Origin: a virus
Virus record (IMG/VR): IMGVR_UViG_3300033182_000991
Coordinates: 1-64,000 of that record
Reading direction: 5' to 3' (one strand)
DNA length: 64,000 nucleotides
Positions within the stretch are counted from its first letter, which is position 1. Each line of letters starts with the position of its first letter. Shown piece after piece: positions 3,060 to 32,898 of the stretch. The notes below the pieces were generated by a model. The model saw only the letters and a list, made by a program, of their open reading frames with translations. It searched no databases and was not told the origin of the DNA. The translations under genes and the position numbers were made by a program.

Positions 3060-3110
3060 ACTCTTTGTTTTTATAGATAAATATACTTACCTTTGGAAAA
3101 AATAAACGAT

Positions 3111-3689: not shown

Positions 3690-3711
3690 TAATATAGAAA
3701 ACGAAAAATTT

Positions 3712-4497: not shown

Positions 4498-4502
4498 TAA
4501 AC

Positions 4503-4509
4503 TATTTAT
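4503..4509 (+). promoter_or_regulatory. putative phage late promoter motif TATTTAT
   Basis: Recurs in short intergenic gaps ahead of starts: + 4503, 9886, 14373, 14971, 16250, 28669, 34847, 51703, 57405, 62427, 63069; - 3077, 14909, 50807, 51032, 59824. Confidence 0.6.
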
Positions 4510-4539
4510 AATAAGGTGGTATCGCCTAAATAGTTTATT

Positions 4540-6292: not shown

Positions 6293-6881
6293 TGAATTAA
6301 AATCTTTATTGGAAGCATCAAGAAAGATGTTAGGTAAAGGTAATTTGAACGAATCAAGAGACACATTAAAGAGAATGGGTCTTATTAATGAGCAAGAGGA
6401 TGTGGTAACTGACTTATCAGATGAGCCGGTAGATATTGACGTAGATAGTGAAGAAGAGATTGATATTGAAACTACACCTGATGAGGATAAGAGTCAATCT
6501 TATAGAGTGTCTGGTGGCATCATCACTTTACACGGTAAAAACAAACAACAAATAGAATTGTCTTCTGAAGAGAAAATTGCATTCCAAGAAACCATGGATG
6601 ATTTCGTAGACCAAGTATCTGACTTATCAGATTTCGGAACATTACACATGTATCCAAACAATGTAGAGTGGAGTGGTAAGGTTATTGACTTTGACTTGGA
6701 GTTCTTCTATTCAATCGGTGAAAACAATGGTGTATACATCAACGGTGATATGATTAAGTTGGATGAGTCTTTAGTGGAGTTAATCAATAAGTTAACTTCT
6801 TACTACCAACAGTTCAAATCTAAATGGGCTAAGGTATTGGTATCAAGAAAGAAAACTAAAAACGTAGATACTGAAGAGTAA
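6279..6881 (+). CDS. hypothetical protein (acidic, putative virion)
   Basis: 200-aa ORF with overlapping start/stop coupling; LLE/LNE/INE motifs. Confidence 0.65.
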   Translation: MNQYDELKSLLEASRKMLGKGNLNESRDTLKRMGLINEQEDVVTDLSDEPVDIDVDSEEEIDIETTPDEDKSQSYRVSGGIITLHGKNKQQIELSSEEKIAFQETMDDFVDQVSDLSDFGTLHMYPNNVEWSGKVIDFDLEFFYSIGENNGVYINGDMIKLDESLVELINKLTSYYQQFKSKWAKVLVSRKKTKNVDTEE

Positions 6882-7459
6882 TGAAAAAGTACGTCAGTTC
6901 AATACAGAATCTATTAATCCTTATATTGGTTGTGTTGGTATTATTCCAAAGTCAGTGTAGTAGGAAACCTGATGTTGAACCTGAAGTAATCGTAACCATT
7001 GAAACAAAGTGGGATACCGTTAATGTTGTTCAAACGGAATATGTTCCCAAATGGAGAACAAGAGTGGTGACCGAACGTGTTGAGGTACCCTCAGACATTG
7101 ATACGATGTCTATCTTAAGAGACTATTACGCTAAGTATTATTACACTGACACCCTAACTTTAGATACGTTAGGATTTTTGGTTTTGAATGATACTATCTC
7201 TCAGAATAGTGTTATGAGTAGAAGTTTCGTTTCTGACATTTCTATTCCGACGACAACAATTACAAAAGAGATATACCTTAAAAAGAGAGAGTTCTATTGG
7301 GGTATGGGTCTAAGTGGAGACAAATCACAACTCAACTATTTGGGTGGTGAATTTATGTATAAGAATAAACAAAGAAATATGTTCGGAGTGGGTATGGGTG
7401 TAAACCAAGATTTACAACCAGTGGTATCAGGAAGAATGTATTGGAAAATAGGAAAATAA
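6881..7459 (+). CDS. membrane-anchored/lipoprotein, possible spanin-like lysis protein
   Basis: N-terminal hydrophobic stretch ending in QSQCS; beta-rich C-term; lies near amidase. Confidence 0.5.
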   Translation: MKKYVSSIQNLLILILVVLVLFQSQCSRKPDVEPEVIVTIETKWDTVNVVQTEYVPKWRTRVVTERVEVPSDIDTMSILRDYYAKYYYTDTLTLDTLGFLVLNDTISQNSVMSRSFVSDISIPTTTITKEIYLKKREFYWGMGLSGDKSQLNYLGGEFMYKNKQRNMFGVGMGVNQDLQPVVSGRMYWKIGK

Positions 7460-7707
7460 TGGCGTTATCAAATTCAGATAAGAAGGAGATTGAAGTGATG
7501 GTTAGAAAAGAAATTAAGAGTTTCTTAGATTCTAACACCTTAAAGCAGTTTGAGGACAAAATGATTCAAACCATTCAGAAGGAAATCCAAAGGGGTAAAC
7601 TTCAGGGTGATGTTAATGATATCGTTGTTAAGATAATGCGTGAATTCTATAAAATTATGTGGACTCGTAGAAGTTTCTGGGAACCAACACTTAAATCAGT
7701 GAAGTAA
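7459..7707 (+). CDS. hypothetical protein
   Basis: ATG overlapping previous stop (TAATG). Confidence 0.65.
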   Translation: MALSNSDKKEIEVMVRKEIKSFLDSNTLKQFEDKMIQTIQKEIQRGKLQGDVNDIVVKIMREFYKIMWTRRSFWEPTLKSVK

Positions 7708-9878
7708 TGAAATTAAACGAAGAACAACTTAAGGATATGATACAAACGAGTTTGCAAAAAGCATTCTCACAAAATTTATCATCGCTTGGTGGTAACGATG
7801 CTATTACTGATAATTTTGTTTCATTGAATAAAGCTAAAAATATGGCTGAAGAAGAGGTGGAAGAAGAAAAAGGTTATTCGCCATTTCTTAAGTCTGATGA
7901 AAACCCAAAAGGTGAAACTGAAGGGTTGACTATTGATGTATTGAATCAAATCCTTATGAAGATTGTTCAGGACGAAGAAGGTGGAGAGACTACTGAAGCG
8001 ACAGGTGCGGGTTCGGCTGGTGGTTATTCTGCACCATTGTTTGTTGAGCCAAAGAAGAATACCATGTTCCAACCAGGTACTGAAGGTAACTTAACTACGA
8101 AGCCTGAGGGTGGTCCTGTTAATGAAGCGGAACTTAGAGATTTTGAAAAGCAAGAATTGATTAGAAAGTTAATGAAAGCTGCGGGTGGACCATCACCGTC
8201 TAAGAGTATCAGAAGAATTCTTGATGACCTTGAAAGAAAACTACAAAAAGGTAAGGCAACTGGTGTTAAGTATGCTCACGGTGTTAGGGTTGATGAACAA
8301 GAGGATGAAACAACACCTGAAGATGTGGATACAAATGATAACCAGTTTGATTTCTTCAAAGGTGAGTATGAACCTGAAACAAAGACGTATGTTGGTTCTT
8401 ATTTGGTAGGTGAAGAGACTCCAAAACAATTGGAAGTTTATAACATCATCGAAAGACCTGATAAAGATGCTTACTTTATGTCGGGACATCAACCTTATTC
8501 AATATCATTAAGAAAGGTGATGTTACCTATTTCTCAGATTGAAGTATTGGGTGATGTGCCAGGTAAAGAAGGTTTCAAATTTATTAGAATGCCGTATTGG
8601 TTCTTTAAGAAAAATCAAAACGATTTAAGGATTAGTAGATTGGATGGTAAGAAGATGTTATACATCATGGGTTACGATAGAAAAGATGAGAATATGTTGA
8701 GGTTGTTTGACCCAATGTTTGAAAAGTATATCGAGTCTATTGTATATGATGAAGACGACCAAAAGAAATACGATATTGCTAAGGACAACTATAAGAGGTT
8801 TAAGATGACACCAATCAATGAAGATGAAATCAAAGGTGGTAAGGCCGATGGTATGGACATTGAAGATGTTGCTGAGATGCATGGTATGAGTGTTGATGAG
8901 ATGTATGATGAATTCTCAAAAGGTGTTCAACATGAAATGGAACATACTTCAGAACCGAGAGTGGCTTTTGAAATTGCTTTGGACCATTTATACGAAGACC
9001 CTGAATACTATACTAAGTTAGAACGTATGGAAATGGGTGGTGAAACAACTGAAGCAACCACATCAGCATCTGCAGGTGTTTACGACGCACCATTTGGAGG
9101 ACCTAAGAAAGACCCATTAAAGTTATCTAACCCTGATACTGTTGATAAGGAGTTAAGGTCTGTAAAAGACAAGAACTTCCCTAAGTTCGGTGGTAAAGGT
9201 GGTAAGTTTGTAAAGATTAAGAAGAAGTGTTCTAAGTTCCCTTACTGTAATCAGGGTGACATCAATGCATTACAAATCTTCGAGAGAGACATTGTTAAGG
9301 AGATGGTTACTAATACTGCTAAGAGAACAAATCTTGAGGAGTATGTTGTAAGAAACATCATCGCAAAGGAATTGGGTTATATTCAGGAACAAGAAGAAGA
9401 CCATGATGAAGAATTTGCAACAATTGAAATTTTGGGTAAAGATGACTTAGGTGATAAGACTGAGTGGATTGATATGATTCCTGATGAGAAGGCTAAGTTC
9501 TTAATCAAAGAATTGAAAGATAAGGAGTTCGAATTTGATTCCAATGGATTATCAGGTAAGGTAAAGATTCTTGATGTAGGTCCAAAGGGTAAGATTGGTG
9601 GATTCTTTGGTGTTGCCAGTGAATATGATTTTAGTGACAGTAAGTATGCTGAGGTATGGGTGGAATTGTCTGACTTGAAATACAAAGGTAAAGACGTTTC
9701 CGTTGAGTTCTATGATATGATATCTCGATACTTACCAACCGAAGATGAAGATTCATATAGAGGTGACCCTATCGAATATGCTATTTTAGGTGGTCTTGAA
9801 CATGTTAATAGAGTAATGAAAAGTTTGGGTCTATACCTTGGTGGTATGAGAATAAATCCATATGCGAGATTTAGATAA
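7707..9878 (+). CDS. large acidic mosaic protein with DUF5661-like module, putative internal head protein
   Basis: KGVQHEMEHT..EIALDHLYEDPEYYTKL module; duplicated GGETTEAT..SAG.Y.AP motif. Confidence 0.65.
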   Translation: MKLNEEQLKDMIQTSLQKAFSQNLSSLGGNDAITDNFVSLNKAKNMAEEEVEEEKGYSPFLKSDENPKGETEGLTIDVLNQILMKIVQDEEGGETTEATGAGSAGGYSAPLFVEPKKNTMFQPGTEGNLTTKPEGGPVNEAELRDFEKQELIRKLMKAAGGPSPSKSIRRILDDLERKLQKGKATGVKYAHGVRVDEQEDETTPEDVDTNDNQFDFFKGEYEPETKTYVGSYLVGEETPKQLEVYNIIERPDKDAYFMSGHQPYSISLRKVMLPISQIEVLGDVPGKEGFKFIRMPYWFFKKNQNDLRISRLDGKKMLYIMGYDRKDENMLRLFDPMFEKYIESIVYDEDDQKKYDIAKDNYKRFKMTPINEDEIKGGKADGMDIEDVAEMHGMSVDEMYDEFSKGVQHEMEHTSEPRVAFEIALDHLYEDPEYYTKLERMEMGGETTEATTSASAGVYDAPFGGPKKDPLKLSNPDTVDKELRSVKDKNFPKFGGKGGKFVKIKKKCSKFPYCNQGDINALQIFERDIVKEMVTNTAKRTNLEEYVVRNIIAKELGYIQEQEEDHDEEFATIEILGKDDLGDKTEWIDMIPDEKAKFLIKELKDKEFEFDSNGLSGKVKILDVGPKGKIGGFFGVASEYDFSDSKYAEVWVELSDLKYKGKDVSVEFYDMISRYLPTEDEDSYRGDPIEYAILGGLEHVNRVMKSLGLYLGGMRINPYARFR

Positions 9879-9908: not shown

Positions 9909-10913
9909 ATGAATATTGAAGAAACTATAAATAAGATTGTCGACAGAGTCCTTAATGAGGAATTGTCGAAGAAAATTGACGACGCTGTTGAAACCATTTC
10001 AGAAGACATGGGTAAAATGCCAGAAGATAGAGACAAGTTTGACGGTCGTGATTCAGAAGTTGTGGGTGTTGATTCTAACATCGAGAAGCAACGTATGGAA
10101 GAAGAAATTGACGAAGAAGAAGTTGAAGAAGGTAATGCTTTCAGTGCCGCAAGAGCTAAGGCGATTGAGAACGGTGAGGACTCATTTGAAGTTGATGGAA
10201 AAACATATCCTGTAACGGATGAAGAAGATGAGGTTAAAAAAGAGTCAACAAAGAACGTTGTTACTTTATCTGAATCAGAAATGATTGAACTTATCCAAAG
10301 ATTAGTTATGGAACAGAAAGAAGCAAAAGGTCTTAAAGACACTGAGAAAACATTGAAAGATTCAAAGAAGGTTAACGACGAAGCGATGAAGGAAGTTAAC
10401 AAGAAAATGAAAGACTATGTTAAGGCAGGTTCTGAAGAAGCATACACTCCTGATGCTGAACACTTCCCACAAGGTAACGGTGAATTAGGTGAAACTGAAA
10501 AGATGGCTTATACACCATCAAAACAGGTTGAAGAATTTATTGAGTTCATTTCAAGAACTGCAGGTCAAGAAGATTTAGGTTATGACCAAATCAAACCTGA
10601 TGAGGATTGGTTAGAGATGAATATCATGGGTAGTTCAAAGACAGGTAACAGTCAGGAATATGCAAATGCAGTTCCAACTGATGTTAACAAAAAGATTAAC
10701 GTAAAGAGAAAGAAACAAGAGTTGAACAAGTTGAAGGATATGGCGTATAACAAAGCACCTCAACCTGTTTATGACTTTGCAGGTAATAAGACACATAATG
10801 ATAGTTTTGCGGGTTTACAAACTGCATCGATTGATGAGAAAAAAGGTGAAAAAATTAACGAAGACATTGACAGAATGAAATCGTTGTTGGGACACAAGTA
10901 CAAAACACAATAA
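9909..10913 (+). CDS. acidic hypothetical protein, putative virion
   Basis: TATTTAT upstream; LNEE, LSESEM, INED motifs. Confidence 0.65.
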   Translation: MNIEETINKIVDRVLNEELSKKIDDAVETISEDMGKMPEDRDKFDGRDSEVVGVDSNIEKQRMEEEIDEEEVEEGNAFSAARAKAIENGEDSFEVDGKTYPVTDEEDEVKKESTKNVVTLSESEMIELIQRLVMEQKEAKGLKDTEKTLKDSKKVNDEAMKEVNKKMKDYVKAGSEEAYTPDAEHFPQGNGELGETEKMAYTPSKQVEEFIEFISRTAGQEDLGYDQIKPDEDWLEMNIMGSSKTGNSQEYANAVPTDVNKKINVKRKKQELNKLKDMAYNKAPQPVYDFAGNKTHNDSFAGLQTASIDEKKGEKINEDIDRMKSLLGHKYKTQ

Positions 10914-10956
10914 ACTTTAATATTTCTTTTATAAAGGTCCATCTTATCTTTCAAGT

Positions 10957-11439
10957 ATGAAAGAAGGGATGGACTTTTTTTTTAATTGGATTTCAAAACC
11001 TATGAATAAATCAGATGTTGATTTATGGTTTCGCGCACATAATATTCAGAGAGAATATTCGGAACTATTTGAGGACTATTGTTTTTCATTGATATACTTA
11101 ATTCAGGACACTTATCTCGGTGACAGCCATGGTGAGAGTAGGGAAACTAAAATATCGTTGAATGACGAGGATAAAAAAGGTCATTTCCAATGGTGTTGGA
11201 ATACGGTCATATCTAACTTTGAGAAAGAGAATATAAAATTCTCATTCAAAAACGATGATTACGATTACTTTGAAAGTTTCTTATTTGAAGTGTATTACGA
11301 CCAACCAGATGTAGAAATAAGAGAATCTATCGCACCCTTCTTGACTCAGTTGTTTGATATGAACAGAACTTTTACAAAGTCAGATTTGGAGATGTATACA
11401 GATATGTATAAGGTGTTGGAAAGGTCACTCGTTAATTAA
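10957..11439 (+). CDS. hypothetical protein
   Basis: 160-aa ORF. Confidence 0.7.
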   Translation: MKEGMDFFFNWISKPMNKSDVDLWFRAHNIQREYSELFEDYCFSLIYLIQDTYLGDSHGESRETKISLNDEDKKGHFQWCWNTVISNFEKENIKFSFKNDDYDYFESFLFEVYYDQPDVEIRESIAPFLTQLFDMNRTFTKSDLEMYTDMYKVLERSLVN

Positions 11440-11515
11440 TTTTTCCTTTATGGCTTTACAATAAACCCAGAAAAATTACTTTTTGTGTAATAAATTTTAT
11501 TAAAACTAAATTGAA

Positions 11516-11689
11516 ATGGAAACATTAGAAAACATCAAATCATTGGTTGAGGCTTTATCAGTAGATACTACAAAGTTCTACGCAGGAAATAAGTCAGCAG
11601 GAACAAGAGCAAGAAAAACTGCACAGGAATTGAAGGCATTACTTCAAGATTTGAGAAGTGAAGTCCTTGAGCACAAAAAAACACTATAA
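11516..11689 (+). CDS. histone H1-like (Hc1-type) small basic protein, not in ORF track
   Basis: METLENIKSLVEALSVDTTKFYAGNKSAGTRARKTAQELKALLQDLR..; GNK.AGTRARK is the Hc1-like signature. Confidence 0.8.
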   Translation: METLENIKSLVEALSVDTTKFYAGNKSAGTRARKTAQELKALLQDLRSEVLEHKKTL

Positions 11690-11886
11690 TGTATAACGAG
11701 ATAGTATCAAATATAACATTATTTATTTTTGTGTTCTCGGCTTTGGCGATGGTCAGATTGGGAGTGAACTTTGTTAGCTCATTACTTTCTGACCCTCCAA
11801 AACCTCTAAACTTAACAATACGTGAGATAATCGTTAGTGGGTTATTTTTAACGTATATTATTACATACATCATTACGTTACTATGA
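11689..11886 (+). CDS. small two-TM membrane protein
   Basis: Two hydrophobic segments; coupled start. Confidence 0.65.
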   Translation: MYNEIVSNITLFIFVFSALAMVRLGVNFVSSLLSDPPKPLNLTIREIIVSGLFLTYIITYIITLL

Positions 11887-16272: not shown

Positions 16273-17625
16273 ATGGCAATTAAGTTTAGTAATTTAGTAA
16301 AGACAGTAATTCTTGAACAAGGTCGTTACGAACTTTTGTTGAAGACTTACACTGAGCCGAAAAAGAAAGGTGAAAAGACAAAACCTGCTCGCATGAGTAA
16401 GGAGGATTTCAACAAGATTATCTCTGCTGACCCTACAACTCGTAAGGACGGTGACGATATCAAAAAGGCTGGTAAGTATGTGAATTGGTTGTTGAAGCAA
16501 TTCCTACAGATTGAGCCTAATATTGAGGCTGACTACGGAACACCAGCATTCAAAGCTGAGAAGACTGAAAAGTTACGTTTGTTTTTTGAAGATTTATATA
16601 AGGTAACTCAGGACTTACAAAAGTTTGAGAGGTTCAAAGGTAAATTGGAGCGTGAGGACCGTGACATTAATAAGTTGAGTATTGATAGACTTAATGATTT
16701 GATGTTACCATATTCTTTGGAGAAGACCAAAGCAACCAAGGACGAAAAAGAAGAGGCAGCTAAAACTTACGACCACCCAGGTGGCGAAGTAATCTTCAGA
16801 GGTTCTAATTGGACTGTGGTAAGAATCAGTGATTCAAGTCAATTAGGTAAGGACGCGGCATGTTTTTACGGTGGTAATGACCAAAAACCTGGTAAGGGTG
16901 AGTCAGGATGGTGTACCTCTTCACCTGGTGGTTCAATGTTTAACCACTACATTAAGAGTGGTCCTTTATATGTTGTTCTTCCAAATGAGGCTGAAGAGTT
17001 TATGTCAGGTGGTCCTAAGGTTGGTCAAGTATCTGGCCTTCCTGCTAAGAGATACCAATTCCACTTCCCATCAAATCAGTTCATGGATGCCAATGACCGT
17101 TCAATTGATTTGATTAACTTCTTATTGGAAAACCCTGAATTGAAAGAGGTGTTCAAACCTGAGTTCGCAAAAGGTATGACATCATTGGACGGTAAGAAAG
17201 TAAACATTGATTACCCGAGAGACGCGGCTTCTAAATATATTGCGTTGTATGGTTTTGATGAGTTGTTCCAAAACTTACCAAACGACATTACATCGTTTGA
17301 CTTCACAAAGAGTACTGGTGGTTATGGATATAGAAGTCAAGATGTTAAAGACTTGGCGATGGATATCCCTGAGCAGTTGGGTAACTACAAAAACCTTATG
17401 GCCGTTCACTTTGAGGGTATTCTTAAATCACTTCCAAAGTCTTTGGGGAAATTGGAGAACCTACAGTTTTTATCAATTCCTAACAATCCTAACTTGAAGA
17501 CAATCCCTGAGGAGATTGCTCAGTTACCAAACTTGAAGGTAATCAACATTCAAGGAAACCCACAACTACAGCTTCCTGAGGCGGTAGAGAAGATGGCAGA
17601 AGAAGGGGTGTTTATCTCAAAATAA
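16273..17625 (+). CDS. putative virion protein with CxYG..WCT domain and C-terminal leucine-rich repeats
   Basis: AACFYGG..GWCTS..GPLYV; LKSLPKSLGKLENLQFLSI, LKTIPEEIAQLPNLKVINI. Confidence 0.7.
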   Translation: MAIKFSNLVKTVILEQGRYELLLKTYTEPKKKGEKTKPARMSKEDFNKIISADPTTRKDGDDIKKAGKYVNWLLKQFLQIEPNIEADYGTPAFKAEKTEKLRLFFEDLYKVTQDLQKFERFKGKLEREDRDINKLSIDRLNDLMLPYSLEKTKATKDEKEEAAKTYDHPGGEVIFRGSNWTVVRISDSSQLGKDAACFYGGNDQKPGKGESGWCTSSPGGSMFNHYIKSGPLYVVLPNEAEEFMSGGPKVGQVSGLPAKRYQFHFPSNQFMDANDRSIDLINFLLENPELKEVFKPEFAKGMTSLDGKKVNIDYPRDAASKYIALYGFDELFQNLPNDITSFDFTKSTGGYGYRSQDVKDLAMDIPEQLGNYKNLMAVHFEGILKSLPKSLGKLENLQFLSIPNNPNLKTIPEEIAQLPNLKVINIQGNPQLQLPEAVEKMAEEGVFISK

Positions 17626-17995: not shown

Positions 17996-20074
17996 ATGGA
18001 AGTCGTTAAAGAACCGCTGAATTATTATCGTGATGGTGTGGACCGTTTTATTGTTGTTACGGTTGCCACGGAAGATAATGATGAACTTTCTCGTTTCAAA
18101 GAATCATGTAAAAGATATAATATCCCATATTTGATATTGGGATTGGGTGACGAATGGAAGAGTGGATATGCTGAAAACGGTGTATTGATTTCTCAGGGTG
18201 GTGCTCAGAAGATTTTGTATCTAAGGGACGAGATGAGAACATGGGATAACTTACAGGATACCATTGTAATGTTTACAGATTCTTATGACGTGGTATTCAA
18301 TGGTGGGCCAAAACAAATTATTGATACATTTAGAAATATGAAGTCACCGATAGTGTTTGGTGCTGAGAAGACATGTTGGCCTGATGAGGATATTAAGACT
18401 ATGTATCCTAATACTCCGAGTGAATATAAGTATTTGAACTCAGGTGGTTTCATTGGTTATGGTGACCATATCTTTGAGATGATTAACAAAGACATCTCAA
18501 TTGAAGAGGATGACCAAAGGTACTACACCAATTACTTTTTAAGTACTGGTGGCGAGATTCCTGATAAGTTAGATTACGATTCAATTAAACCAAACCCATA
18601 TGAACCACACGAAAACGGTTCACCATTCGGGTGGATGAGTGAGACTTATTTTGATGAACACATTTATAAATACATCACAGGTAAGTGGGGTGAACATGCT
18701 ACTATGTTGGACATCGGTGGTGGTGATGGTAAGTGGGCACATGTATTAGGTTCATATATAAGAGACATTGATTGTGTTGAGGTCTTTGAGCCGTATGTTG
18801 AGAGGTATAACCTCAAAGAGATGTATAGGAATGTGTATGTTCAGAATTTCTTGGACTTTGACTTTGAACACTACCATATCGTGGTTATGGGTGATGTCTT
18901 TGAACACGTCACTCAAGAACAGGCGTTTGAATGGTTAACGAAGGTTAGGGATAAAGTAGATGAAATTATTATCATTGTTCCTTTTGAGTATGTGCAGGAT
19001 TGGGACGGTGTGTATGAAAATGTATATGGACATCACCACCAACCCGATTTGACACCTACAAATATGTTGGAGAGATATCCGATGTTGGAACTGATGGCTT
19101 GGACAGAACAAAAAAGTGTCTCTGAGGAAGGAAGTGGATTCGGTTGGTACGGATGGAAAGGAATGAAGAATAGAGTTGCCAATAATATTAAATTGGATTA
19201 CAACCAACAGATATTTCAAACTCTCAACCTATCATTGGATGAGATGAGGTTGAACAACTTGGAAGGTAAGGTATATAATAACAAGAAAAAAGTAACACCT
19301 TTGGTTATTCATGCGAATGGACCTTCAGATGTTAAAAACTATTTGTCAGAAATTGAAGATGTGGTATTGGGTAAGAACCTCTTTAAGAAGAAGATTATTG
19401 AGGTGACCAATAGAACGGTATTGATTAACGTATTTGCGGATAGACCTGTGGATGACCTTAATCAAGTGTTTGACCAAATTAGGTATTTGGAGTTCCCAAA
19501 GAAAAATATCTTTATCAACATATTATACTCTGACGTGTCTCACGAATATAAGATTGAAAAGTTTATTGATGAGTTCTCATCCGAATACATTGGTATTGAT
19601 ATGATTTATGTTAGAGGTGATGAAGTGGTATTGAGAGACAGGGCGTTGGAGTTAAGTATGAACTCACACATGGACTATTCATTATTAATGGATTGTAATT
19701 ACATTTTCAGAAACAGAAAGTCCTTACAAAGACTTATTGGTGAAGATAAGTACATTATTACTCCGATGATTAATAGTGAAGGTACAGAGTGGGTAAACTT
19801 CTTCTTCAATGTGGATGAAAATGGAAGGTTTGTTCCTTCAGATGAACAACAAGCAATCAAAGATTATCAGATACAGGATACATTCAGTGTTGGTTATACT
19901 GCTGGTATGTGGTTAATCAGTAATGAGATTATTATGAGGATACAAAACTATTTCAGTAAAAATATTGAAAGATATGGAACTGATAATTACGATATTTGTT
20001 TTTCACACAATCTGAGGGAGAGGGGATTTTATTTATATCTCACCAACAAAAGTTATTATGGTGGTGTAATATAA
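17996..20074 (+). CDS. PLOD/LH3-like glycosyltransferase plus accessory domain with inserted class I SAM methyltransferase
   Basis: VTVAT, LGLGDEW, GGAQKI, MFTDSYD, FGAEKTCWP, LNSGGFIG, DDQ, LDY..IFQ.LN, HANG, IITPM, DICFSHNLRERG.YLYL; insert LDIGGGDG..VEVF..MGDVFEH. Confidence 0.85.
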   Translation: MEVVKEPLNYYRDGVDRFIVVTVATEDNDELSRFKESCKRYNIPYLILGLGDEWKSGYAENGVLISQGGAQKILYLRDEMRTWDNLQDTIVMFTDSYDVVFNGGPKQIIDTFRNMKSPIVFGAEKTCWPDEDIKTMYPNTPSEYKYLNSGGFIGYGDHIFEMINKDISIEEDDQRYYTNYFLSTGGEIPDKLDYDSIKPNPYEPHENGSPFGWMSETYFDEHIYKYITGKWGEHATMLDIGGGDGKWAHVLGSYIRDIDCVEVFEPYVERYNLKEMYRNVYVQNFLDFDFEHYHIVVMGDVFEHVTQEQAFEWLTKVRDKVDEIIIIVPFEYVQDWDGVYENVYGHHHQPDLTPTNMLERYPMLELMAWTEQKSVSEEGSGFGWYGWKGMKNRVANNIKLDYNQQIFQTLNLSLDEMRLNNLEGKVYNNKKKVTPLVIHANGPSDVKNYLSEIEDVVLGKNLFKKKIIEVTNRTVLINVFADRPVDDLNQVFDQIRYLEFPKKNIFINILYSDVSHEYKIEKFIDEFSSEYIGIDMIYVRGDEVVLRDRALELSMNSHMDYSLLMDCNYIFRNRKSLQRLIGEDKYIITPMINSEGTEWVNFFFNVDENGRFVPSDEQQAIKDYQIQDTFSVGYTAGMWLISNEIIMRIQNYFSKNIERYGTDNYDICFSHNLRERGFYLYLTNKSYYGGVI

Positions 20075-22159: not shown

Positions 22160-24688
22160 ATGAAAAAAGTAAATTTATTGGCCTTACTTGCTGGGGCATT
22201 ATTGACAGTAAACAGTGCCTTCGCTCAAGAGGCCCAAAATCTTGAAGCACTTGATTCCCTGTTCAACTCAGAAACATTGGACGAGGTCGTTGTAACGTCG
22301 GGAGTCATTGATATTGCTAAGGTAAGAGAAACACCAATTGCGGTATCTACGATTTCACCATCAGAAATCACATTGAAGACGGGTAACCAAGAGTTCCCTG
22401 AAATCATGAACAACACACCAGGTGTATACGCAACTAAACAAGGTGGTGGTTACGGTGACTCACGTTTGTCACTTCGTGGTTTTGACCAACGTAACACTTC
22501 TTTCCTTATTAACGGACAGCCCGTGAACGATATGGAGAATGGTTGGGTGTATTGGTCTAACTGGCAAGGTTTGACTGACGTGGCATCAGGTATTCAAATC
22601 CAAAGAGGTTTGGGAGCGTCACGTTTGGCGGTTCCATCTGTGGGTGGTACGGTATCTATCTTCACTAAAGCGGCTCAGAAGTCGGAAGGTGGTTCGGTAT
22701 CTCAGGTGGTAGGTAACAATGGTTACTTGAAAACAACTGTTAACTACAACACTGGTAAGAACGAGGATGGATGGGCAACATCATTCTTGTTGAGTAAATG
22801 GCAAGGTAACGGATATGTATACAACACTTCAGGTGAAGGTTGGACATACTTCGGTGCTGTTGGTTATGAACCAAAGGGTTCTGACCACAAATTGAACCTT
22901 TCTATCTTGGGTGCTGGTCAATGGCACCACCAAAGAGATGTATATGTTTCTATTCGTGACTATGAATACTTTGGTGAGGAAGGTATTGACCCTCGTTGGA
23001 ATTCTAACGGTGGTACCTTGAATGGTGAGGAGTTCTCTATGAGAAGAAACTTCTACAACAAACCATTGGCAACGTTCAACTGGGATTGGGACATCAATTC
23101 TACTTGGACGCTAAACACATCTTTCTACGGTTCGGCAGGTCGTGGTGGTGGTACTGGTCCTCGTGGTCGTAACTACTACAACGCAGAGACTGATATCTTA
23201 CCTTATCAGAAAGATTTGTATGAACACTACGTAGTAAACGGTCGTGGTTCTCGTAACGAGGATGGGTCAATTGACTTCGATGCGTTGGTTGCTTACAACC
23301 AAGCGAACACTGACGGTTACACAGGTGACTTACCATTCGGTGGTCAGTTGATTGGTTCTAACGGTTTCCGTGATTCAAATGTAAACAGAGCGGTTATCGT
23401 TCGTAGAGCATCTATGAACTCTCACGACTGGGTTGGTGCTATCTCTAACTTGGAAGGTGAGTTCGGTAATTGGACTACATCTATTGGTGTTGACCTTCGT
23501 AACTACAAAGGTTACCACTACCGTGTGTTGAATGACTTGATGGGTCTTGACGGTTACTATTCAACAGGTAACAAGAACTCAGCAGGACAAATCATCAACA
23601 CTACTGTAAATGCTTCTCCATTCAACAACACAGGTTTGAACGGTCCTAAGATTGACTACTTCAACACTGGTTTAGTAAGATGGGGTGGTTTGAACGGTAT
23701 GGTCGAATACAACGAAGATGGTAAATACAATGCTGTCATTCAAGCGGGTGTATCAAATCAGTCTTACCAAAGAGAAGACTTCTTTGACCAACCAGCACTT
23801 CCAACATCTGACGTTCACAGTCAGTTAGGTGGTTATGTTAAGGGTGGTGCAAACTACAATATGAACGAAAGTTCTAACATCTTCTTCAACGCAGGTTACA
23901 TCTCACGTCAACCTATGTTTGATGCGGTATTCCCTAACTACGCTAACTTGGTTAATGAAGAGTTACAGAATGAAGAAATCACTTCAGTTGAGATGGGTTA
24001 CGGTTATGTAACAAATGACTTGGTTGTTAATGTTAACGCTTACTCTACAAATTGGGGTAACCGTTTCATCACACGTTCTTTGTCTAACTCTCAAGGTGTT
24101 GACGGTTTCGCACAGTTCAAAGACATTGATGTTCGTCACAATGGTATTGAGGTTGAAGGTAAATATACAGTTAACAACAACTTGAAACTTAAAGGTATGA
24201 TGTCTGCAGGTGACTGGAGATATACTAAGGACTTTACTGCTACATTGTTTGACGAACAACAACAAGAGATTGGTACTGGTACATTGTATTTGAAAGATGC
24301 TAAGGTAGGTGATGCGGCTCAGTTCGTAACGAGCTTGGGTGCTGACTACAGAGTAGGTAAAGTGAACTTGGATGCAAACTACCGTTTTGTTGATGGTCTT
24401 TACGCTGACTACAACATCTTGGATGACGTGTTTACTGCTCCTGATAACGCAGGCGCATTGAAACTACCATCTTACGGATTGGTTGATATGGGTATGACTA
24501 CTCGTTTGGGTAAGATGACTCTTCGTTTGAATGTGAACAACTTGTTGAACACAACTTACATTGCAGAGTCTAATACTAACATCCACGCAACTGAGACTTC
24601 AGAGACTTGGAATGGTATTGATACTCGTAACTTCGTTTGGTTCGGTTTCGGTAGAACATGGAACGCAAGTTTGAAATACAACTTCTAA
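22160..24688 (+). CDS. TonB-dependent outer-membrane receptor
   Basis: Signal peptide, LDEVVVT, plug (LRGF..LINGQPVND..IQIQRG), beta-barrel, C-terminal GRTWNASLKYNF. Confidence 0.92.
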   Translation: MKKVNLLALLAGALLTVNSAFAQEAQNLEALDSLFNSETLDEVVVTSGVIDIAKVRETPIAVSTISPSEITLKTGNQEFPEIMNNTPGVYATKQGGGYGDSRLSLRGFDQRNTSFLINGQPVNDMENGWVYWSNWQGLTDVASGIQIQRGLGASRLAVPSVGGTVSIFTKAAQKSEGGSVSQVVGNNGYLKTTVNYNTGKNEDGWATSFLLSKWQGNGYVYNTSGEGWTYFGAVGYEPKGSDHKLNLSILGAGQWHHQRDVYVSIRDYEYFGEEGIDPRWNSNGGTLNGEEFSMRRNFYNKPLATFNWDWDINSTWTLNTSFYGSAGRGGGTGPRGRNYYNAETDILPYQKDLYEHYVVNGRGSRNEDGSIDFDALVAYNQANTDGYTGDLPFGGQLIGSNGFRDSNVNRAVIVRRASMNSHDWVGAISNLEGEFGNWTTSIGVDLRNYKGYHYRVLNDLMGLDGYYSTGNKNSAGQIINTTVNASPFNNTGLNGPKIDYFNTGLVRWGGLNGMVEYNEDGKYNAVIQAGVSNQSYQREDFFDQPALPTSDVHSQLGGYVKGGANYNMNESSNIFFNAGYISRQPMFDAVFPNYANLVNEELQNEEITSVEMGYGYVTNDLVVNVNAYSTNWGNRFITRSLSNSQGVDGFAQFKDIDVRHNGIEVEGKYTVNNNLKLKGMMSAGDWRYTKDFTATLFDEQQQEIGTGTLYLKDAKVGDAAQFVTSLGADYRVGKVNLDANYRFVDGLYADYNILDDVFTAPDNAGALKLPSYGLVDMGMTTRLGKMTLRLNVNNLLNTTYIAESNTNIHATETSETWNGIDTRNFVWFGFGRTWNASLKYNF

Positions 24689-25816: not shown

Positions 25817-26944
25817 ATGAAAATTAAATTAGAATACATCTGGTTGGACGGTTACTACCCTGAGCCAAACCTGAGAAGTAAAGTAAAGGTAGTGAATGCA
25901 CCGACGCACGAGGTGAATGGAAAGAAAGTTCACGGTGTGGGATTAAATGATTGTCCTATGTGGGGATTTGATGGTTCATCAACACGTCAGGCTGAGGGAC
26001 ATTTCTCTGATTGTCTTTTGAAACCAGTAAGGTTGTATCCAAACCCAATGAATAAGGGTATGTTGGATAGTTACTTGGTTTTGTGTGAGGTATTGAACCC
26101 TGATGGGACACCTCACGAGACTAACACTCGTCATTTGATTGGTGAGGAAGAAGAAGGGTTGTGGTTCGGTTTTGAACAGGAATACACAATCATGAAGGAC
26201 GGTAAGCCGTTAGGTTTCCCAACGAATGGATATCCTGAACCACAGGGTAAGTATTACTGTGGTGTGGGTAACGGACAGGTTCACGGTCGTGAGTTTGTGG
26301 AACAACATATGGAGAACTGTATTATGGCTGGTATTGATATTACTGGTACCAATGCTGAGGTGATGTTAGGTCAATGGGAATACCAAGTTTTCGGTAAAGG
26401 AAAGTTAAAGGCGTCTGATGACCTATGGGTTTCTCGTTATATGTTAAACCAAATGTCTGAGGACTATGGTTTCAAGATTGAATTCCACCCGAAACCTGTG
26501 ACTGGTGATTGGAACGGTTCTGGTCTACACTGTAACTTCTCTAATGTGAAGATGAGAGAAGAGGGTGGTAAGGAGTACTTTGATGCTATCTTCAAAACTT
26601 TTGAGGGTCGTCACTTGGAACACATTAAGTGTTACGGTTCATCTAACGAGATGAGGTTGACAGGTCTTCACGAGACTCAAAGTATTGATAAATTCAGTTG
26701 GGGTGTATCTGACAGAGGTGCGTCTATCCGTGTTCCTTTATCTACTTCTGAAGATTGGAAGGGATATGTGGAAGATAGAAGACCAGCATCCAACGCAGAC
26801 CCATACAGAATTACTTACATCATTGCTCAGTCTATTGGTCAAGCTGAAGAGTTGGAAAAAACTTTACACAATATGTATAGTGAAGTAGAGGTTAGTGAAG
26901 AAGTGAAAGACCTTTACGAGGAAACAGTAAATAATGGAAAGTAA
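25817..26944 (+). CDS. glnA: glutamine synthetase, type II
   Basis: LEYIWLDG, FDGSST, FEQEY, NAEVMLGQWEYQ, HPKP..DWNGSGLH, RLTGLHET, RGASIRVP, EDRRPASNADPY. Confidence 0.95.
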   Translation: MKIKLEYIWLDGYYPEPNLRSKVKVVNAPTHEVNGKKVHGVGLNDCPMWGFDGSSTRQAEGHFSDCLLKPVRLYPNPMNKGMLDSYLVLCEVLNPDGTPHETNTRHLIGEEEEGLWFGFEQEYTIMKDGKPLGFPTNGYPEPQGKYYCGVGNGQVHGREFVEQHMENCIMAGIDITGTNAEVMLGQWEYQVFGKGKLKASDDLWVSRYMLNQMSEDYGFKIEFHPKPVTGDWNGSGLHCNFSNVKMREEGGKEYFDAIFKTFEGRHLEHIKCYGSSNEMRLTGLHETQSIDKFSWGVSDRGASIRVPLSTSEDWKGYVEDRRPASNADPYRITYIIAQSIGQAEELEKTLHNMYSEVEVSEEVKDLYEETVNNGK

Positions 26945-28734: not shown

Positions 28735-31700
28735 ATGGCTAAAAATCTAAGAATTGTACCGAACCCCACGGGTTCTACACCGTATATATTATTTGAAAAT
28801 ACTTCAGGTGGAAAGATACAGATGAACATCAAGGATGATGGTTCTATTGTATTCTCTGGTGCAACCAATGGTGATGACTTATTTAAGATGGATGCCAACG
28901 CTCAGAACATTAGAGTTGGTAAGGATGTTAACTTTGAAAATGATATCTATTTTGATAATAAGTTAACCATTTCTGATGATGGTCAATGGGTTGGTACTGA
29001 TGTTGGTGTAAAAGGTAACAAAGGTAGTTTAGGTCCCACTGGCGACCAAGGTGAGAAAGGTCTTAAAGGTTTAAGAGGTTCTCAAGGTGGTGGTGGTGAC
29101 CAAGGTCCTACAGGTGATGATTTCCAAGGTTCAACAGGTCCACAGGGACCACAAGGTCCCACAGGTGAAGACAACACGAAGGGTGATGTCGGTTTCAAAG
29201 GTATTAAAGGTTCCCAAACAAAAGGTCAAAAAGGTCCACAGGGTAGTTCTCCAAGAGGTTCACAAGGTTCGCAAGGGGCATCTCCTAAAGGTATTAAAGG
29301 TGGTCAAGGTCCTCAGGGAGCGATAGGTCCCCAAGGTGGGCAAGGTGTCTCTACGAGGGGTCCTGAAGGTTCATTGGGGGATTCTTTCCAAGGTTCTACA
29401 GGTCCTACAGGTGATTCATCACCAGGGGATGTGGGTGGACAAGGTTCGCAGGGAGCTCAGGGTCCTGGTGGTGATAAGGGTGTTAAGGGACCTGGTGGTT
29501 TGCAAGGGGACAAAGGTCCTACCGCACCTAAAGGTCCAAAAGGATTGAAAGGACCTACCGCACCTAAGGGTCCTAAAGGTTATAAAGGTACAAAAGGTTT
29601 GAAGGGTACTAAGGGTGCTCAGGGTAATTCACCAAGAGGTGCTCTTGGACCACAAGGTGTTTCTCCTATCGGACCACAGGGTACTCAAGGTACGTCACCG
29701 AGAGGTAATCAAGGTGTTATCGGAATTCAGCCAGGTCGTGGTGCACAAGGTGATGCAAATCCAGGACCAACAGGACCTACGGGTTCCACAAATCAGGGAC
29801 CTCAAGGTTCTACAGGTCCAACCAACCAAGGTCCACAAGGTCCTGTTGGTTCTCAGGGTCCTGCGGGTAATGCAGGTCCGAAAGGTCTTAAAGGTTATAA
29901 AGGTACTAAGGGTACCAAAGGTCATAAAGGTTATAAAGGTAATATCGGTGCGTCACCTGTAGGTCCAAGAGGTCCACAAGGTGCGTCGCCTCAAGGACCT
30001 CAGGGTGGTCAGGGACCGCAAGGAGCAGCCAACCCAGGTCCTGTAGGGCCAGGTGGTTCTGCATTTACAGGTAGTGGTGGTGACCAAGGTCCTGTGGGTC
30101 CTCAGGGTAATGACGGACCAAAAGGTCCTAAAGGTATTAAGGGTAATCTTGGTTCCAAAGGTCTTAAAGGTACCAAAGGTAATATTGGTAACTCACCAAG
30201 AGGTCCACAAGGCTCTCAAGGAGCATCACCGAGAGGTGGTACTGGTGCGATAGGTACACAAGGAGCTGCGAATCCTGGACCACAAGGTCCAACAGGTTCA
30301 TCTTTCACTGGTGATGGTGGTGACCAAGGACCAACAGGGCCAACAGGAAACGACGGACCTAAGGGTCTCAAAGGGTACAAAGGTGCTACTGGAGCCAAAG
30401 GATATAAGGGACACAAAGGTTATCGTGGAGCATCACCTCAAGGTCCTATTGGTCCACAAGGTGCATCTCCTCAGGGTGGACAAGGTGCAAGGGGTAATCA
30501 AGGTGCGGCCAATCCAGGTCCTAAAGGTCCTGTAGGTTCAACTAACCAAGGTTCAACAGGACCTCAAGGTTCGGGAGGACCAACGGGTTATGATGGACCT
30601 AAGGGTCCAAAAGGTTACAAGGGAACCAAAGGATTGAAAGGTCGTAAGGGTTTCAAGGGATATATAGGTGGTTCTCCTCAAGGACCAAGAGGTGGTACAG
30701 GGTCTTCACCACAAGGGGGTCAAGGTAATCAGGGTCCTCAGGGTGATGCGAATCCGGGGCCACAAGGACCAACAGGACCATCTTTCCAAGGTTCTACAGG
30801 TCTTCAAGGACCGACAGGTCCAACTGCAGGTGATGGTCCTAAGGGACCAAAAGGTATCAAAGGACCTAAGGGATTGAAAGGTCGTAAGGGTATCAAAGGT
30901 AATGTTGGTAATTCGCCAAGGGGACCTCAAGGTGCTCAAGGAGCATCTCCACGAGGACCACAAGGTAACAGAGGTGGTACAGGTGCTGCCAACCCAGGAC
31001 CAAAAGGACCTGTAGGTTCTTCATTCCAAGGTGCACAAGGAGCTCAGGGTTCCACAGGTCCTACTGGTAATGATGGACCAAAAGGTTATAAGGGATATAA
31101 AGGTGCTTTGGGTGCCAAAGGTTATAAAGGTCATAAGGGTTATCGTGGTTCTTCACCACAAGGTCCTATTGGTAACCAAGGGGGTTCTCCTCAAGGACCG
31201 AGAGGTGCGGGTGGTCCACAAGGTGCCGCTAATCCAGGTCCAAAGGGTCCTGTTGGTGATACAAATCAAGGTTCAACAGGTCCACAAGGTTCAACAGGAC
31301 CACAGGGTAATGACGGACCAAAGGGGCCAAAAGGTTACAAGGGAACCAAAGGTCATAAGGGATATAAAGGACCTAAAGGTTATGTTGGTTCATCACCAAG
31401 GGGTCCTCAGGGTCCACAGGGTGCATCTCCAAGAGGTAATACAGGTGATAATAATCCTGGTCCGACTGGTCCAACAGGTTCTTCGTTCCAAGGTTCAACG
31501 GGTCCTCAGGGTAATGATGGAACAAAAGGTCATAAGGGTTATGTAAGTGCTAAGGGGCACAAAGGTTATATAGGTACGTCGCCAAGAGGTCCTCAAGGGT
31601 CTCAAGGAGCGTCTCCAAGGGGACCGCAGGGTGCTGCCAACCAAGGTGGTACGGGTCCAACGGGTTCTGCCTTCCAAGGTGATAAAGGACCTACAGGTAA

Positions 31701-32898
31701 TGCGGGTGCAAAAGGTTACAAAGGTCTTAAAGGTAGAAAGGGCCATAAAGGTTACATCGGTACTTCACCATTAGGTCCACGAGGTTCTGCGGGTGACTCA
31801 CCAAGAGGTGGTACAGGAGCCAACAATCCGGGGCCTCAAGGACCGACAGGTTCATCATTCCAAGGTTCAACAGGACCACAGGGTAATGACGGACCAAAGG
31901 GGCCGAAAGGTTATAAGGGTGCTAAGGGTCACAAAGGTTATATTGGTTCTAAGGGTCCACAGGGTTCTTCACCAAAAGGACCTATAGGTCCAACAGGTGA
32001 ATCAGAACCAGGTCCAAAAGGTCTTAAGGGACCTAAGGGTTATAAAGGTAGTCCTGGTACAGATGCTAAGGGACGTAAAGGTGGTCCCGGTGCCAAAGGT
32101 ACGAAAGGTCTTAAAGGTTATAAGGGTGATGTAAATACTCAAGCGGGTTCAACGGGTTCAACAGGTCTATATCCAGGTCCGAAGGGACCTAAAGGTTATG
32201 CGGGTAAGATTGGACCATCGGGTACAGGTCCTAAGGGTCCGAGAGGTAACCAAGGGGGTGCGGGCTCAAAAGGTTTGAAAGGTTATAAGGGTAATAAGGG
32301 ACCTAAAGGGTTCAAAGGTCCTGCATCTTCATGTTATTCGGTAACAATGTTCGGTCCGGCTGGTGACGCAGGTGAAGCTTGTATACCTGAGGAATGGAAT
32401 GGTTATTCTGACTGTTCAACTCCGGCTGATGGTTGTAAGGTTTATCAGGTAAGTACCTGTACTTCATGTACATCTTTAACGGGTTTATTCTTAAGTGACG
32501 GTGCAGATGTATTTGAAGTAGGACCTAACAGTGACCCTTGTGAATTAGTTTTTGTTCAAGGTTGTGGTCGTTCGGATGTTAGATTGAAGAATAACATTGA
32601 GACTCTAACAAATATCACAGAGAGAATTCTTGAGATTGATGTGAAAGAATATGATTGGAATGAGAATTTACCTAACTATCAAGACTTAAAAGATAAAGAT
32701 AAGTTACACTCTATCGGTATTATTGCTCAGGAATTGTTACCAATCTTCCCTGAGTTAGTGTATAGAAGAAGTGATGGGTACTACAGTATCTACTACTATA
32801 AGTTGAATGCCATATTAATTGAGGCTGTTAAAGAACAGCAAAGAGAGATTGAGTCTATTGACCAAGACATTAAACTATTATCACAAAAATTGAGTTAA
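28735..32898 (+). CDS. collagen-like tail/virion fibre 1 with Cys-rich tip and Peptidase_S74 chaperone
   Basis: About 1100 aa of Gly-X-Y; 8-Cys segment; SDVRLKNNI..GIIAQE..PELV..Y.KL. Confidence 0.9.
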   Translation: MAKNLRIVPNPTGSTPYILFENTSGGKIQMNIKDDGSIVFSGATNGDDLFKMDANAQNIRVGKDVNFENDIYFDNKLTISDDGQWVGTDVGVKGNKGSLGPTGDQGEKGLKGLRGSQGGGGDQGPTGDDFQGSTGPQGPQGPTGEDNTKGDVGFKGIKGSQTKGQKGPQGSSPRGSQGSQGASPKGIKGGQGPQGAIGPQGGQGVSTRGPEGSLGDSFQGSTGPTGDSSPGDVGGQGSQGAQGPGGDKGVKGPGGLQGDKGPTAPKGPKGLKGPTAPKGPKGYKGTKGLKGTKGAQGNSPRGALGPQGVSPIGPQGTQGTSPRGNQGVIGIQPGRGAQGDANPGPTGPTGSTNQGPQGSTGPTNQGPQGPVGSQGPAGNAGPKGLKGYKGTKGTKGHKGYKGNIGASPVGPRGPQGASPQGPQGGQGPQGAANPGPVGPGGSAFTGSGGDQGPVGPQGNDGPKGPKGIKGNLGSKGLKGTKGNIGNSPRGPQGSQGASPRGGTGAIGTQGAANPGPQGPTGSSFTGDGGDQGPTGPTGNDGPKGLKGYKGATGAKGYKGHKGYRGASPQGPIGPQGASPQGGQGARGNQGAANPGPKGPVGSTNQGSTGPQGSGGPTGYDGPKGPKGYKGTKGLKGRKGFKGYIGGSPQGPRGGTGSSPQGGQGNQGPQGDANPGPQGPTGPSFQGSTGLQGPTGPTAGDGPKGPKGIKGPKGLKGRKGIKGNVGNSPRGPQGAQGASPRGPQGNRGGTGAANPGPKGPVGSSFQGAQGAQGSTGPTGNDGPKGYKGYKGALGAKGYKGHKGYRGSSPQGPIGNQGGSPQGPRGAGGPQGAANPGPKGPVGDTNQGSTGPQGSTGPQGNDGPKGPKGYKGTKGHKGYKGPKGYVGSSPRGPQGPQGASPRGNTGDNNPGPTGPTGSSFQGSTGPQGNDGTKGHKGYVSAKGHKGYIGTSPRGPQGSQGASPRGPQGAANQGGTGPTGSAFQGDKGPTGNAGAKGYKGLKGRKGHKGYIGTSPLGPRGSAGDSPRGGTGANNPGPQGPTGSSFQGSTGPQGNDGPKGPKGYKGAKGHKGYIGSKGPQGSSPKGPIGPTGESEPGPKGLKGPKGYKGSPGTDAKGRKGGPGAKGTKGLKGYKGDVNTQAGSTGSTGLYPGPKGPKGYAGKIGPSGTGPKGPRGNQGGAGSKGLKGYKGNKGPKGFKGPASSCYSVTMFGPAGDAGEACIPEEWNGYSDCSTPADGCKVYQVSTCTSCTSLTGLFLSDGADVFEVGPNSDPCELVFVQGCGRSDVRLKNNIETLTNITERILEIDVKEYDWNENLPNYQDLKDKDKLHSIGIIAQELLPIFPELVYRRSDGYYSIYYYKLNAILIEAVKEQQREIESIDQDIKLLSQKLS
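29875..31890 (+). repeat. 240-nt (80-aa) collagen super-repeats followed by 186-nt (62-aa) variants
   Basis: Anchor GA(C/T)GG recurs at about 30112, 30352, 30592, 30832, 31072, 31312. Confidence 0.85.

Follow-up and report, generated by a model that had tools for sequence, protein, structure and literature searches.

Why does a viral gene for a collagen-type glycosyltransferase carry a second enzyme inside it, and what might the combined protein modify? The question is raised by an open reading frame (ORF) of 692 residues at positions 17996-20074 (+) of a 64,000-nt stretch of viral DNA (the window), which is the first 64 kb of the 112,919-bp IMG/VR record IMGVR_UViG_3300033182_000991. In our reading, to which we give a probability of about 0.6, the protein is a bifunctional enzyme with which a jumbo phage decorates its virions. 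A PLOD-type glycosyltransferase (GT) domain is followed by an accessory (AC) domain, and the GT domain contains a complete S-adenosylmethionine (SAM)-dependent methyltransferase (MTase), placed in the loop after the 'poly-Asp helix' at the entrance to the GT active site. The reading is carried by the computed domain identities, intact motifs, confident folds, the conservation of the insert across the family and its origin in one event, the linkage of the GT gene to fibre genes and that of the MTase family to glycosyltransferases. An earlier note on this DNA, made from the sequence alone, had located the ORF exactly and had proposed a GT-MTase fusion that adds a sugar to phage collagen and methylates it; the comparisons and models described here support that proposal. 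Feature coordinates are collected in Table 1.

The glycosyltransferase and accessory domains

The Pfam family GT_PLOD (PF25342) matches the protein with 215.4 bits (E = 9.5e-64, cut-off 27), and the match falls into two stretches. At the DNA level, positions 4-169 of the profile run up to nt 18547, and the match continues with positions 170-232 from nt 19166. The best sequence match among solved structures is human LH3 (phmmer, E = 8.6e-51), which aligns on both sides of the interruption. Residues 16-185 correspond to residues 14-180 of the LH3 chain (UniProt 37-203) and residues 397-690 to chain residues 186-491 (UniProt 209-514), with ~211 residues of the query occupying the place of five in LH3 (~204-208). 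The mimivirus protein R699 is also matched (E = 4.7e-33). The alignment with LH3 stops at about residue 514, where the lysyl-hydroxylase domain would start, and no Pfam match to a 2-oxoglutarate (2OG) oxygenase, as expected for an Fe(II)/2OG lysyl-hydroxylase domain, was found in the 692-residue protein. It therefore is not a full-length PLOD, and has the GT+AC layout of R699.

An AlphaFold2 (AF2) model of the whole protein, built on 72 relatives, has a mean predicted local distance difference test score (pLDDT) of 91.9. Comparison of this model with the PDB using Foldseek places LH3 at the top (E = 8e-39), followed by R699 (E = 4e-31) and by the GT domain of LH3 on its own (TMt 0.86). For the AC-like half COLGALT1 comes next in the ranking, and there is a weak COLGALT1 sequence match too. 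The structural check suggested in the earlier note thus returned LH3 and its GT domain as best match and no unrelated glycosyltransferase, and the note was right that the protein ends where the hydroxylase would begin. The motifs it had listed are colinear: VTVAT (21-25), LGLGDEW (48-54), DSYD (95-98), CWP (127-129), LNSGGFIG (147-154), DDQ (172-174) and HANG (439-442). Its description of an 'animal-type procollagen' enzyme holds as regards the PLOD/LH3 type; 'animal-type' is misleading, the family being abundant in phages and giant viruses.

The residues essential for the glucosyltransferase (Glc-T) activity of LH3, and the ligands of its Mn2+ ion (D112, D115 and H253), are known from mutagenesis and crystallography (PMC10342707). 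The N-terminal part of the GT domain (residues 16-185) bears the UDP-sugar/Mn2+ site, made up of W54, K72, D95, Y97, D98, E124, W128, N148 and D172-D173-Q174, identical to LH3 W75, K89, D112, Y114, D115, E141, W145, N165 and D190/D191/Q192 respectively. It is completed from beyond the insert by N411, H439 and N441 (LH3 N223, H253 and N255). Twelve of the 13 mapped Glc-T hot spots of LH3 are kept; the sole exception is W148 (E131 here), mutation of which is mild in LH3 (PMC10342707). A search of 5.8 billion proteins returned 405 relatives, and the best 121 of the 405 were used for domain architectures and residue conservation. The mapped hot-spot residues are invariant in these 121, K72, E124 and N411 being outside that check.

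The AC domain carries 'MDCNY' at the position of the DxD motif, and the family PF13704 is precomputed for the AC domains of relatives. From its sequence the domain is probably non-catalytic, as in LH3. The GT domain, of GT-A fold, is predicted to be a retaining glucosyltransferase of the R699/LH3 type. PLOD-type GT domains transfer the second sugar, glucose onto Gal- or Glc-hydroxylysine (PMC12279948, PMC10342707), so that an enzyme for the first sugar and a lysyl hydroxylase would both be needed in trans.

The inserted methyltransferase

The MTase falls exactly between positions 169 and 170 of the GT_PLOD profile. It begins 11 residues after Q174, at the C-terminal end of the helix formed by residues 173-183, as judged from the sequence together with the modelled secondary structure. 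In LH3 the Asp pair at the N-terminus of this 'poly-Asp helix' borders the entrance to the GT pocket (PMC10342707). The earlier note had put an insert of about 210 residues inside the GT domain at about 18545-19185, which is correct and is here refined to 18551-19183.

When residues 186-396 are modelled alone they form a compact domain (pLDDT 91.6; predicted template modelling score, pTM, 0.89). All of the top Foldseek matches of this model are class I MTases, with E values down to 4e-9, and the insert is modelled as an autonomous class I Rossmann SAM-MTase fold, as had been proposed. The motifs LDIGGGDG (238-245) and MGDVFEH (298-304) on which that proposal was based are present. The SAM motifs comprise motif I (the former of these), the ribose-binding acidic residue E262, G299-D300, E303-H304 and H347-x-Q349-x-D351-L352. 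They are kept in 63 insert-bearing relatives and in 10 free-standing relatives of the insert, motif I and E262 being invariant or nearly so. Three free relatives (P0243, P0254 and P0191) exceed the Pfam gathering thresholds for Methyltransf_11/23/25. NCBIfam yielded no match for the insert.

Origin and conservation of the insertion

None of the 405 relatives has been named functionally; few are annotated, as 'hypothetical protein' or generic 'GR25 family glycosyltransferase'. One (P0002) is 98% identical and lies on a 304-kb contig. Members of the family occur commonly in metagenomes from marine and fresh waters. The full insert is present in 63 of the 121 best relatives, which have 685-699 residues, or 898-938 where a GT25/COLGALT-like domain is added at the N-terminus. 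A further 53 have no insert (464-491 residues, or 718-723 with GT25), and the site is bridged by 12-17 residues. In the remaining five, proteins of 626-631 residues, a shortened remnant of ~150 residues without the motifs occupies the same site. This last class is a natural 'dead insert' control. It includes P0063, P0068, P0071 and P0072, and is also found at 10001-11878 of locus L018 in a 297-kb, 99% complete record (G002).

The insertion site is identical in all bearers. A tree calculated from the GT+AC core, with the insert columns removed, requires at least 4-5 changes in the state of the insert. When the tree is built from the insert instead, the inserted MTases all cluster as a single group apart from the 10 free-standing relatives, with 99% support in the SH-like approximate likelihood ratio test (SH-aLRT), and the sub-clades of the insert agree with those of the core. 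Both are quick-search trees and the rooting depends upon distant insert-free sequences. The single group with matching sub-clades points to one ancient insertion inherited vertically, and the sequences fit such an origin followed by several clean losses and one decay. In sequence the insert is conserved as strongly as the catalytic part of the GT and more strongly than the AC domain: identities to P0003 are 84% (MTase), 82% (N-terminal part of the GT) and 86% (AC), and those to P0010 are 73, 66 and 50% respectively.

Two other accounts of the insert were discarded. An intein or other mobile element does not fit with an MTase fold that is in frame and at one conserved site in 63 sequence clusters. 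The earlier note had also remarked upon KLDY at both edges of the insert. Both copies are present (191-194 and 399-402), but a scar resembling a target-site duplication is excluded, and their recurrence is attributed to chance. The right-hand copy is part of the conserved GT core (LNLDH in LH3), and the left-hand copy is KLPY in an 83%-identical relative and absent from others. In the DNA the repeat is 13 nt with 11 of the 13 matching, and these 781 nt contain ten further chance repeats that are at least as good.

Could the insert be catalytically dead in this protein, and serve the GT only as a structural, oligomerization or SAM-sensing module? Its Pfam matches to Methyltransf_23, 12, 25 and 11 lie at 15-25 bits, all below the gathering thresholds. 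The existence of the remnant class, and of many lineages that have lost the insert without replacement, indicates moreover that the GT can do without the methylation step. Yet motif I, E262, G299-D300, E303-H304 and the HxQxDL sequence are kept in the 692-residue protein and 62 other bearers and are common to the free relatives. The insert matches the catalytic part of the GT in conservation, and decay is marked in the remnant class by both the loss of the motifs and shrinkage by ~60 residues, neither of which is seen here. A dead insert is therefore considered very unlikely.

The methyl acceptor

If the insert is an active MTase, the fold does not name its acceptor. The ranking of solved structures is led by NTMT1/NRMT2 (E = 4e-9, TM ~0.57), with TehB, Hen1 and many small MTases practically tied. 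The family to which the insert belongs is more informative. An exhaustive profile search revealed free-standing relatives of 171-184 residues at 40-46% identity (for example P0193, P0243 and P0254). Clusters of this family in the protein atlas are mostly viral and are described generically as 'class I SAM MTase'. Members are fused in the arrangements MTase+GT2, MTase+DUF7164, MTase+GT4+GT9, MTase+HtrL/YibB and DUF2827+MTase. In Mycobacterium phage Phrappuccino the MTase ends a run of the order glycosyltransferase-galactosyltransferase-galactosyltransferase-MTase, and in phage DSL-LC01 a copy lies amid glycosyltransferases and a UDP-galactopyranose mutase. For assignment to a class of sugar O-methyltransferases, linkage to glycosyltransferases is found across independent contexts, as linkage only. 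A collagen-like ORF is near only two of ~74 free-MTase loci that lack a PLOD-type GT.

The MTase family is tied to at least five unrelated GT families without collagen nearby, which argues for a sugar rather than hydroxylysine as the acceptor. From these sequence contexts a sugar O-methylase is favoured over an enzyme that N-methylates lysine or hydroxylysine. It is quite unlikely that the GT acts as proposed and the MTase methylates an atom of the protein, either the ε-amine of (glycosyl)hydroxylysine or lysine in G-X-K, or the N-terminus of a fibre. Such an activity would accord with the top structural neighbours NTMT1/NRMT2, which are protein α-N-methyltransferases, with scores near the threshold for Methyltransf_PK (PF05891; cut-off 27 bits, with the insert at 22 and P0193 at 26.4), with fibres that are rich in G-P-K, and with the known importance of phage tail-protein methylation for infectivity (PMC13445384). 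By profile, however, the insert is not a member of the NTMT/NRMT family, and NTMT1 leads TehB, Hen1 and numerous generic class I MTases by very little, at equal TM. What is common to those loci of the MTase family that are without collagen or a PLOD-type GT is a glycan and not hydroxylysine.

Two types of locus with MTases of this family were observed in other viral contigs. Proteins of 1,150-1,210 residues comprising an N-terminal MTase followed by GT4 and GT9 are encoded at 6001-9459 of locus L083 and 2358-5987 of locus L084, on contigs of up to 326 kb. At 3317-6019 of locus L102 the gene for a 169-residue MTase, from the same family as the insert, lies between those for a major capsid protein and a GT4, and the arrangement recurs in ~12 small viral contigs. 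This cassette looks like a module for the glycosylation and methylation of capsids.

Collagen-like fibres as the putative substrate

Three co-oriented ORFs that begin 8.7 kb downstream of the GT gene match phage tail-fibre PHROGs and contain long series of G-X-Y triplets (Table 1). Proline is the commonest residue at X. Lysine at the Y position of G-X-K is the site of hydroxylation and glycosylation in the collagen of animals and mimivirus. The association is not confined to this contig. Of 48 viral contigs with a gene for a relative of the GT, 38 have a collagen-like ORF, mostly lysine-rich at Y, within 10 kb of that gene. The two of ~74 free-MTase loci serve as a rough background for this linkage, though not as a formal control.

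The enzyme might act elsewhere than on the fibres, building or decorating a free disaccharide (kojibiose), a glycan of the capsid or another part of the virion, or a surface polysaccharide of the host during infection. R699 forms kojibiose from free glucose in vitro (PMC12279948). The GT gene is separated from the fibres and lies amid unrelated genes (for a Dam MTase, a leucine-rich repeat (LRR) protein, a PcfJ-like protein and a TonB-dependent receptor), no GT25 or hydroxylase of the lysyl-hydroxylase type was found on the 113-kb contig, and free MTase relatives sit in cassettes that resemble capsid-glycosylation modules. We regard this as unlikely, though not negligibly so. It is opposed by the proximity of collagen-like ORFs in 38 of 48 viral loci of the GT family, and by the repeated fusion of the same GT in relatives to GT25 (COLGALT-like) and lysyl-hydroxylase-type 2OG domains. 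The contig is moreover only ~38% complete, and related genomes place GT25 far from the GT gene. The collagen-like fibres are accordingly retained as the putative substrate.

The fibre genes themselves contain higher-order tandem repeats of 240 nt (80 residues) and 186 nt, at 30501-31079, 36208-36777 and 40585-41523, common to the three paralogues. These suggest recent unequal recombination or length variation. Between fibres 1 and 2 (32898-34844, +) lies a gene for a 648-residue protein with a C-terminal Laminin_G_3/ConA-like lectin domain, possibly a receptor-binding tip or a fibre-associated lectin.

Partner enzymes and the proposed pathway

Most relatives have GT25 fused or adjacent to the GT. 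In related jumbo phages where the GT is unfused, a stand-alone GT25 of ~257 residues is encoded far away, including in the 99%-complete 297-kb record, and its absence from a partial contig is therefore uninformative. As regards hydroxylation, in a small database the product of 47453-48061 shows weak similarity (E = 6e-6 and 4e-5) to P0133 and P0171, two phage GT25-GT_PLOD-2OG enzymes, in their C-terminal core of the lysyl-hydroxylase type. On this sequence similarity it is the contig's best candidate, albeit a weak one, for a lysyl hydroxylase acting in trans. Outside the window, the same contig encodes two more small 2OG-FeII_Oxy_3 oxygenases at 85446-85712 (+) and 94232-94537 (-), giving a total of five oxygenase-type genes in 113 kb.

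We infer the substrate protein, the identities of the sugars, the methyl acceptor and its position, and the order of the steps, which would be as follows. Y-position lysines in the G-X-K triplets of the three fibres would be hydroxylated by a separate 2OG oxygenase, for which 47453-48061 is the candidate. The first hexose would be added by a GT25/COLGALT-type enzyme, which was not found on this partial contig, and the next would be transferred from a UDP-sugar by the PLOD-type GT domain with Mn2+. Lastly the tethered MTase would O-methylate the glycan, probably as a terminal cap. Tentatively, and at rather less than even odds, the fibres may carry methylated (Glc-)hexosyl-hydroxylysine. The value of the nested polypeptide would be that an MTase tethered at the mouth of the GT pocket receives the new sugar directly and caps it, setting the length of the glycan and tuning receptor binding or resistance to proteases.

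Several points weigh against a bifunctional enzyme acting upon the fibres. The contig supplies neither a detected GT25 nor, among its oxygenases, one that is clearly of the lysyl-hydroxylase type. R699 prefers free glucose in vitro, so the acceptor specificity of the family can be loose (PMC12279948). A Rosetta-stone test found no free MTase of the insert's family within 10 kb of insert-free GTs, and there is none in four large related phage records, one of which is 99% complete. Phages with no insert or a decayed one thus lack a compensating free MTase, and methylation is dispensable, an optional decoration. The solved folds closest to the insert are those of N-terminal amine methyltransferases of proteins (NTMT1/NRMT), by a marginal lead over generic small MTases, and its Pfam matches are all sub-threshold. 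Finally, the pTM of the whole model is 0.55, and an MTase that faces the acceptor site of the GT is conjecture.

Comparison with known systems

The nearest characterized protein is R699 of mimivirus (PDB 9dyt/9dzs/9e92), and not L230, which the earlier note had cited as the viral counterpart. The GT domain of L230 is GLT25D1-like (GT25-like) and not PLOD-GT-like (PMC9614988). R699 is likewise viral, with a PLOD-type GT and an AC domain, the same catalytic residues and no lysyl-hydroxylase domain; it differs in having no inserted MTase and in belonging to a giant virus of amoebae rather than a tailed phage. It is a Gal-hydroxylysine glucosyltransferase that also glucosylates glucose (PMC9546862, PMC12279948), an activity shown by experiment, whereas the phage enzyme is known from sequence and models.

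Human LH3 (PLOD3; PDB 6fxk, 6wfv, 8zgc; PMC10342707) is the best match in both sequence and structure and is colinear through the AC domain. Unlike the phage protein it has a C-terminal Fe/2OG lysyl-hydroxylase domain, with a five-residue loop in place of the 211-residue MTase, and it is an animal enzyme of the lumen of the endoplasmic reticulum whereas the phage protein is cytoplasmic. The 'three-in-one' GT25-GT_PLOD-AC-2OG enzymes of phages and mimivirus, and L230, share the context of the pathway, in which G-X-K collagen-like proteins of the virion are hydroxylated and glycosylated (PMC9614988). These enzymes carry the hydroxylase and are without an MTase, and the 692-residue protein has neither GT25 nor hydroxylase. 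Ten distant GT_PLOD matches that were inspected included no tandem PLOD-GT/FkbM fusion.

Two further systems resemble the protein in the pairing of glycosylation with methylation. A064R of the chlorovirus PBCV-1 (GT-GT-methyltransferase; PMC9614988) follows the same logic, in that one viral polypeptide both attaches sugars to a glycan of a virion protein and, using SAM, O-methylates the terminal one. Its domains are in tandem rather than nested, the GT and MTase families are unrelated, and the substrate is the N-glycan of the capsid protein. In the actinobacteriophage Phrappuccino (gp142-145) the gp145 MTase is homologous to the insert (33% identity, E = 5e-7) and follows three annotated glycosyl/galactosyl-transferase genes. 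It differs in being a separate gene with neither a PLOD-type GT nor a collagen context, its function being assigned by annotation.

No paper on a PLOD-type GT in tailed phages, or on an MTase nested in one, was found in a literature search, and no viral protein in BFVD matches over the full length. New here are the nested architecture, its single origin and the tie to a glycan-associated viral MTase family.

Genomic context

CheckV estimates the 112,919-bp contig to be ~38% complete, which suggests a jumbo tailed phage, here taken to be of marine type. Tail-fibre proteins matching phage PHROGs are encoded, as are DNA methyltransferases and a sigma factor. Beside the fibre genes, the GT17-like, NodU-like, three 2OG-oxygenase-type and GT11-like genes listed in Table 1 suggest an elaborately decorated glycan; the position of the NodU-like and GT17-like genes directly after the fibres suggests that the fibre glycan is also carbamoylated.

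Table 1. Coordinates of the GT-MTase gene, its domains and associated genes within the window
Feature	Positions	Strand	Basis
Whole gene: PLOD-type GT with nested MTase, then AC domain	17996-20074	+	Pfam GT_PLOD, LH3 phmmer, AF2, Foldseek
GT domain, N-terminal part (residues 16-185)	18041-18550	+	Aligns to LH3 37-203 (UniProt numbering)
Inserted class I SAM-dependent MTase domain (residues 186-396)	18551-19183	+	Broken GT profile, own fold, motifs
GT domain, C-terminal part (residues 397-470), with N411, H439 (third Mn ligand) and N441	19184-19405	+	LH3 209 onward; GT_PLOD positions 170-232
Accessory (AC) GT-A-like domain (residues 471-692)	19406-20071	+	Aligns to LH3 AC domain up to residue 514
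Collagen-like tail fibre 1, putative substrate: 1387 residues, 193 G-X-Y triplets, Lys ~47% of Y, C-terminal Peptidase_S74 chaperone	28735-32898	+	
Collagen-like tail fibre 2: 1262 residues, 206 triplets, Lys ~44% of Y, Peptidase_S74	35117-38905	+	
Collagen-like tail fibre 3: 1311 residues, 195 triplets, Lys ~46% of Y, Peptidase_S74	38905-42840	+	
Unassigned gene with faint fucosyltransferase hint	42895-43944	+	
GT17-like protein, 551 residues, C-terminal ~300 unassigned	43937-45592	-	
NodU-like O-carbamoyltransferase	45589-47388	-	
Small 2OG-Fe(II) oxygenase (2OG-FeII_Oxy_3, PKHD/PiuC-like)	47453-48061	+	Pfam, PDB
Oxygenase-type gene, 2OG-FeII_Oxy_4, P4H-like	48462-49184	-	
Oxygenase-type gene, DUF6445	49187-49765	-	
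GT11-like protein (α-1,2-fucosyltransferase family)	54754-55740	+	

The genes adjoining the GT gene are of a different character. Just upstream (16273-17625, +) is the gene for a 450-residue protein with C-terminal LRRs. The TonB-dependent receptor (22160-24688, +) has 842 residues with a Plug domain and a signal peptide, and the local GC content is ~42% compared with ~36% in the flanking DNA. This may be an auxiliary gene of host origin, and may hint that the host is Gram-negative and possibly Bacteroidota-like. A gene resembling glutamine synthetase of the GlnII type (25817-26944, +; NCBIfam GlnII 408 bits, below the cut-off of 500) is a possible auxiliary metabolic gene.

Significance

Hydroxylysine-linked Glc-Gal is regarded as characteristic of the collagen of animals and, to our knowledge, mimivirus has been the sole exception among viruses. 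A large family of enzymes in tailed phages uses the same catalytic machinery, beside collagen-like fibres rich in G-X-K. In one major lineage an MTase has been built into the GT fold, which predicts a new modification of collagen, a methylated hydroxylysine glycan. The protein is a natural and evolutionarily stable enzyme within an enzyme. With one origin, several complete losses and a single case of decay, the nested form provides a system for the study of domain insertion. Compact bifunctional enzymes of this kind could find use in the glyco-engineering of recombinant collagen-like materials. For the phage itself, the tail fibres would undergo heavy decoration in multiple steps, with sugars, methyl and probably carbamoyl groups, that is likely to be relevant to the recognition of its host.

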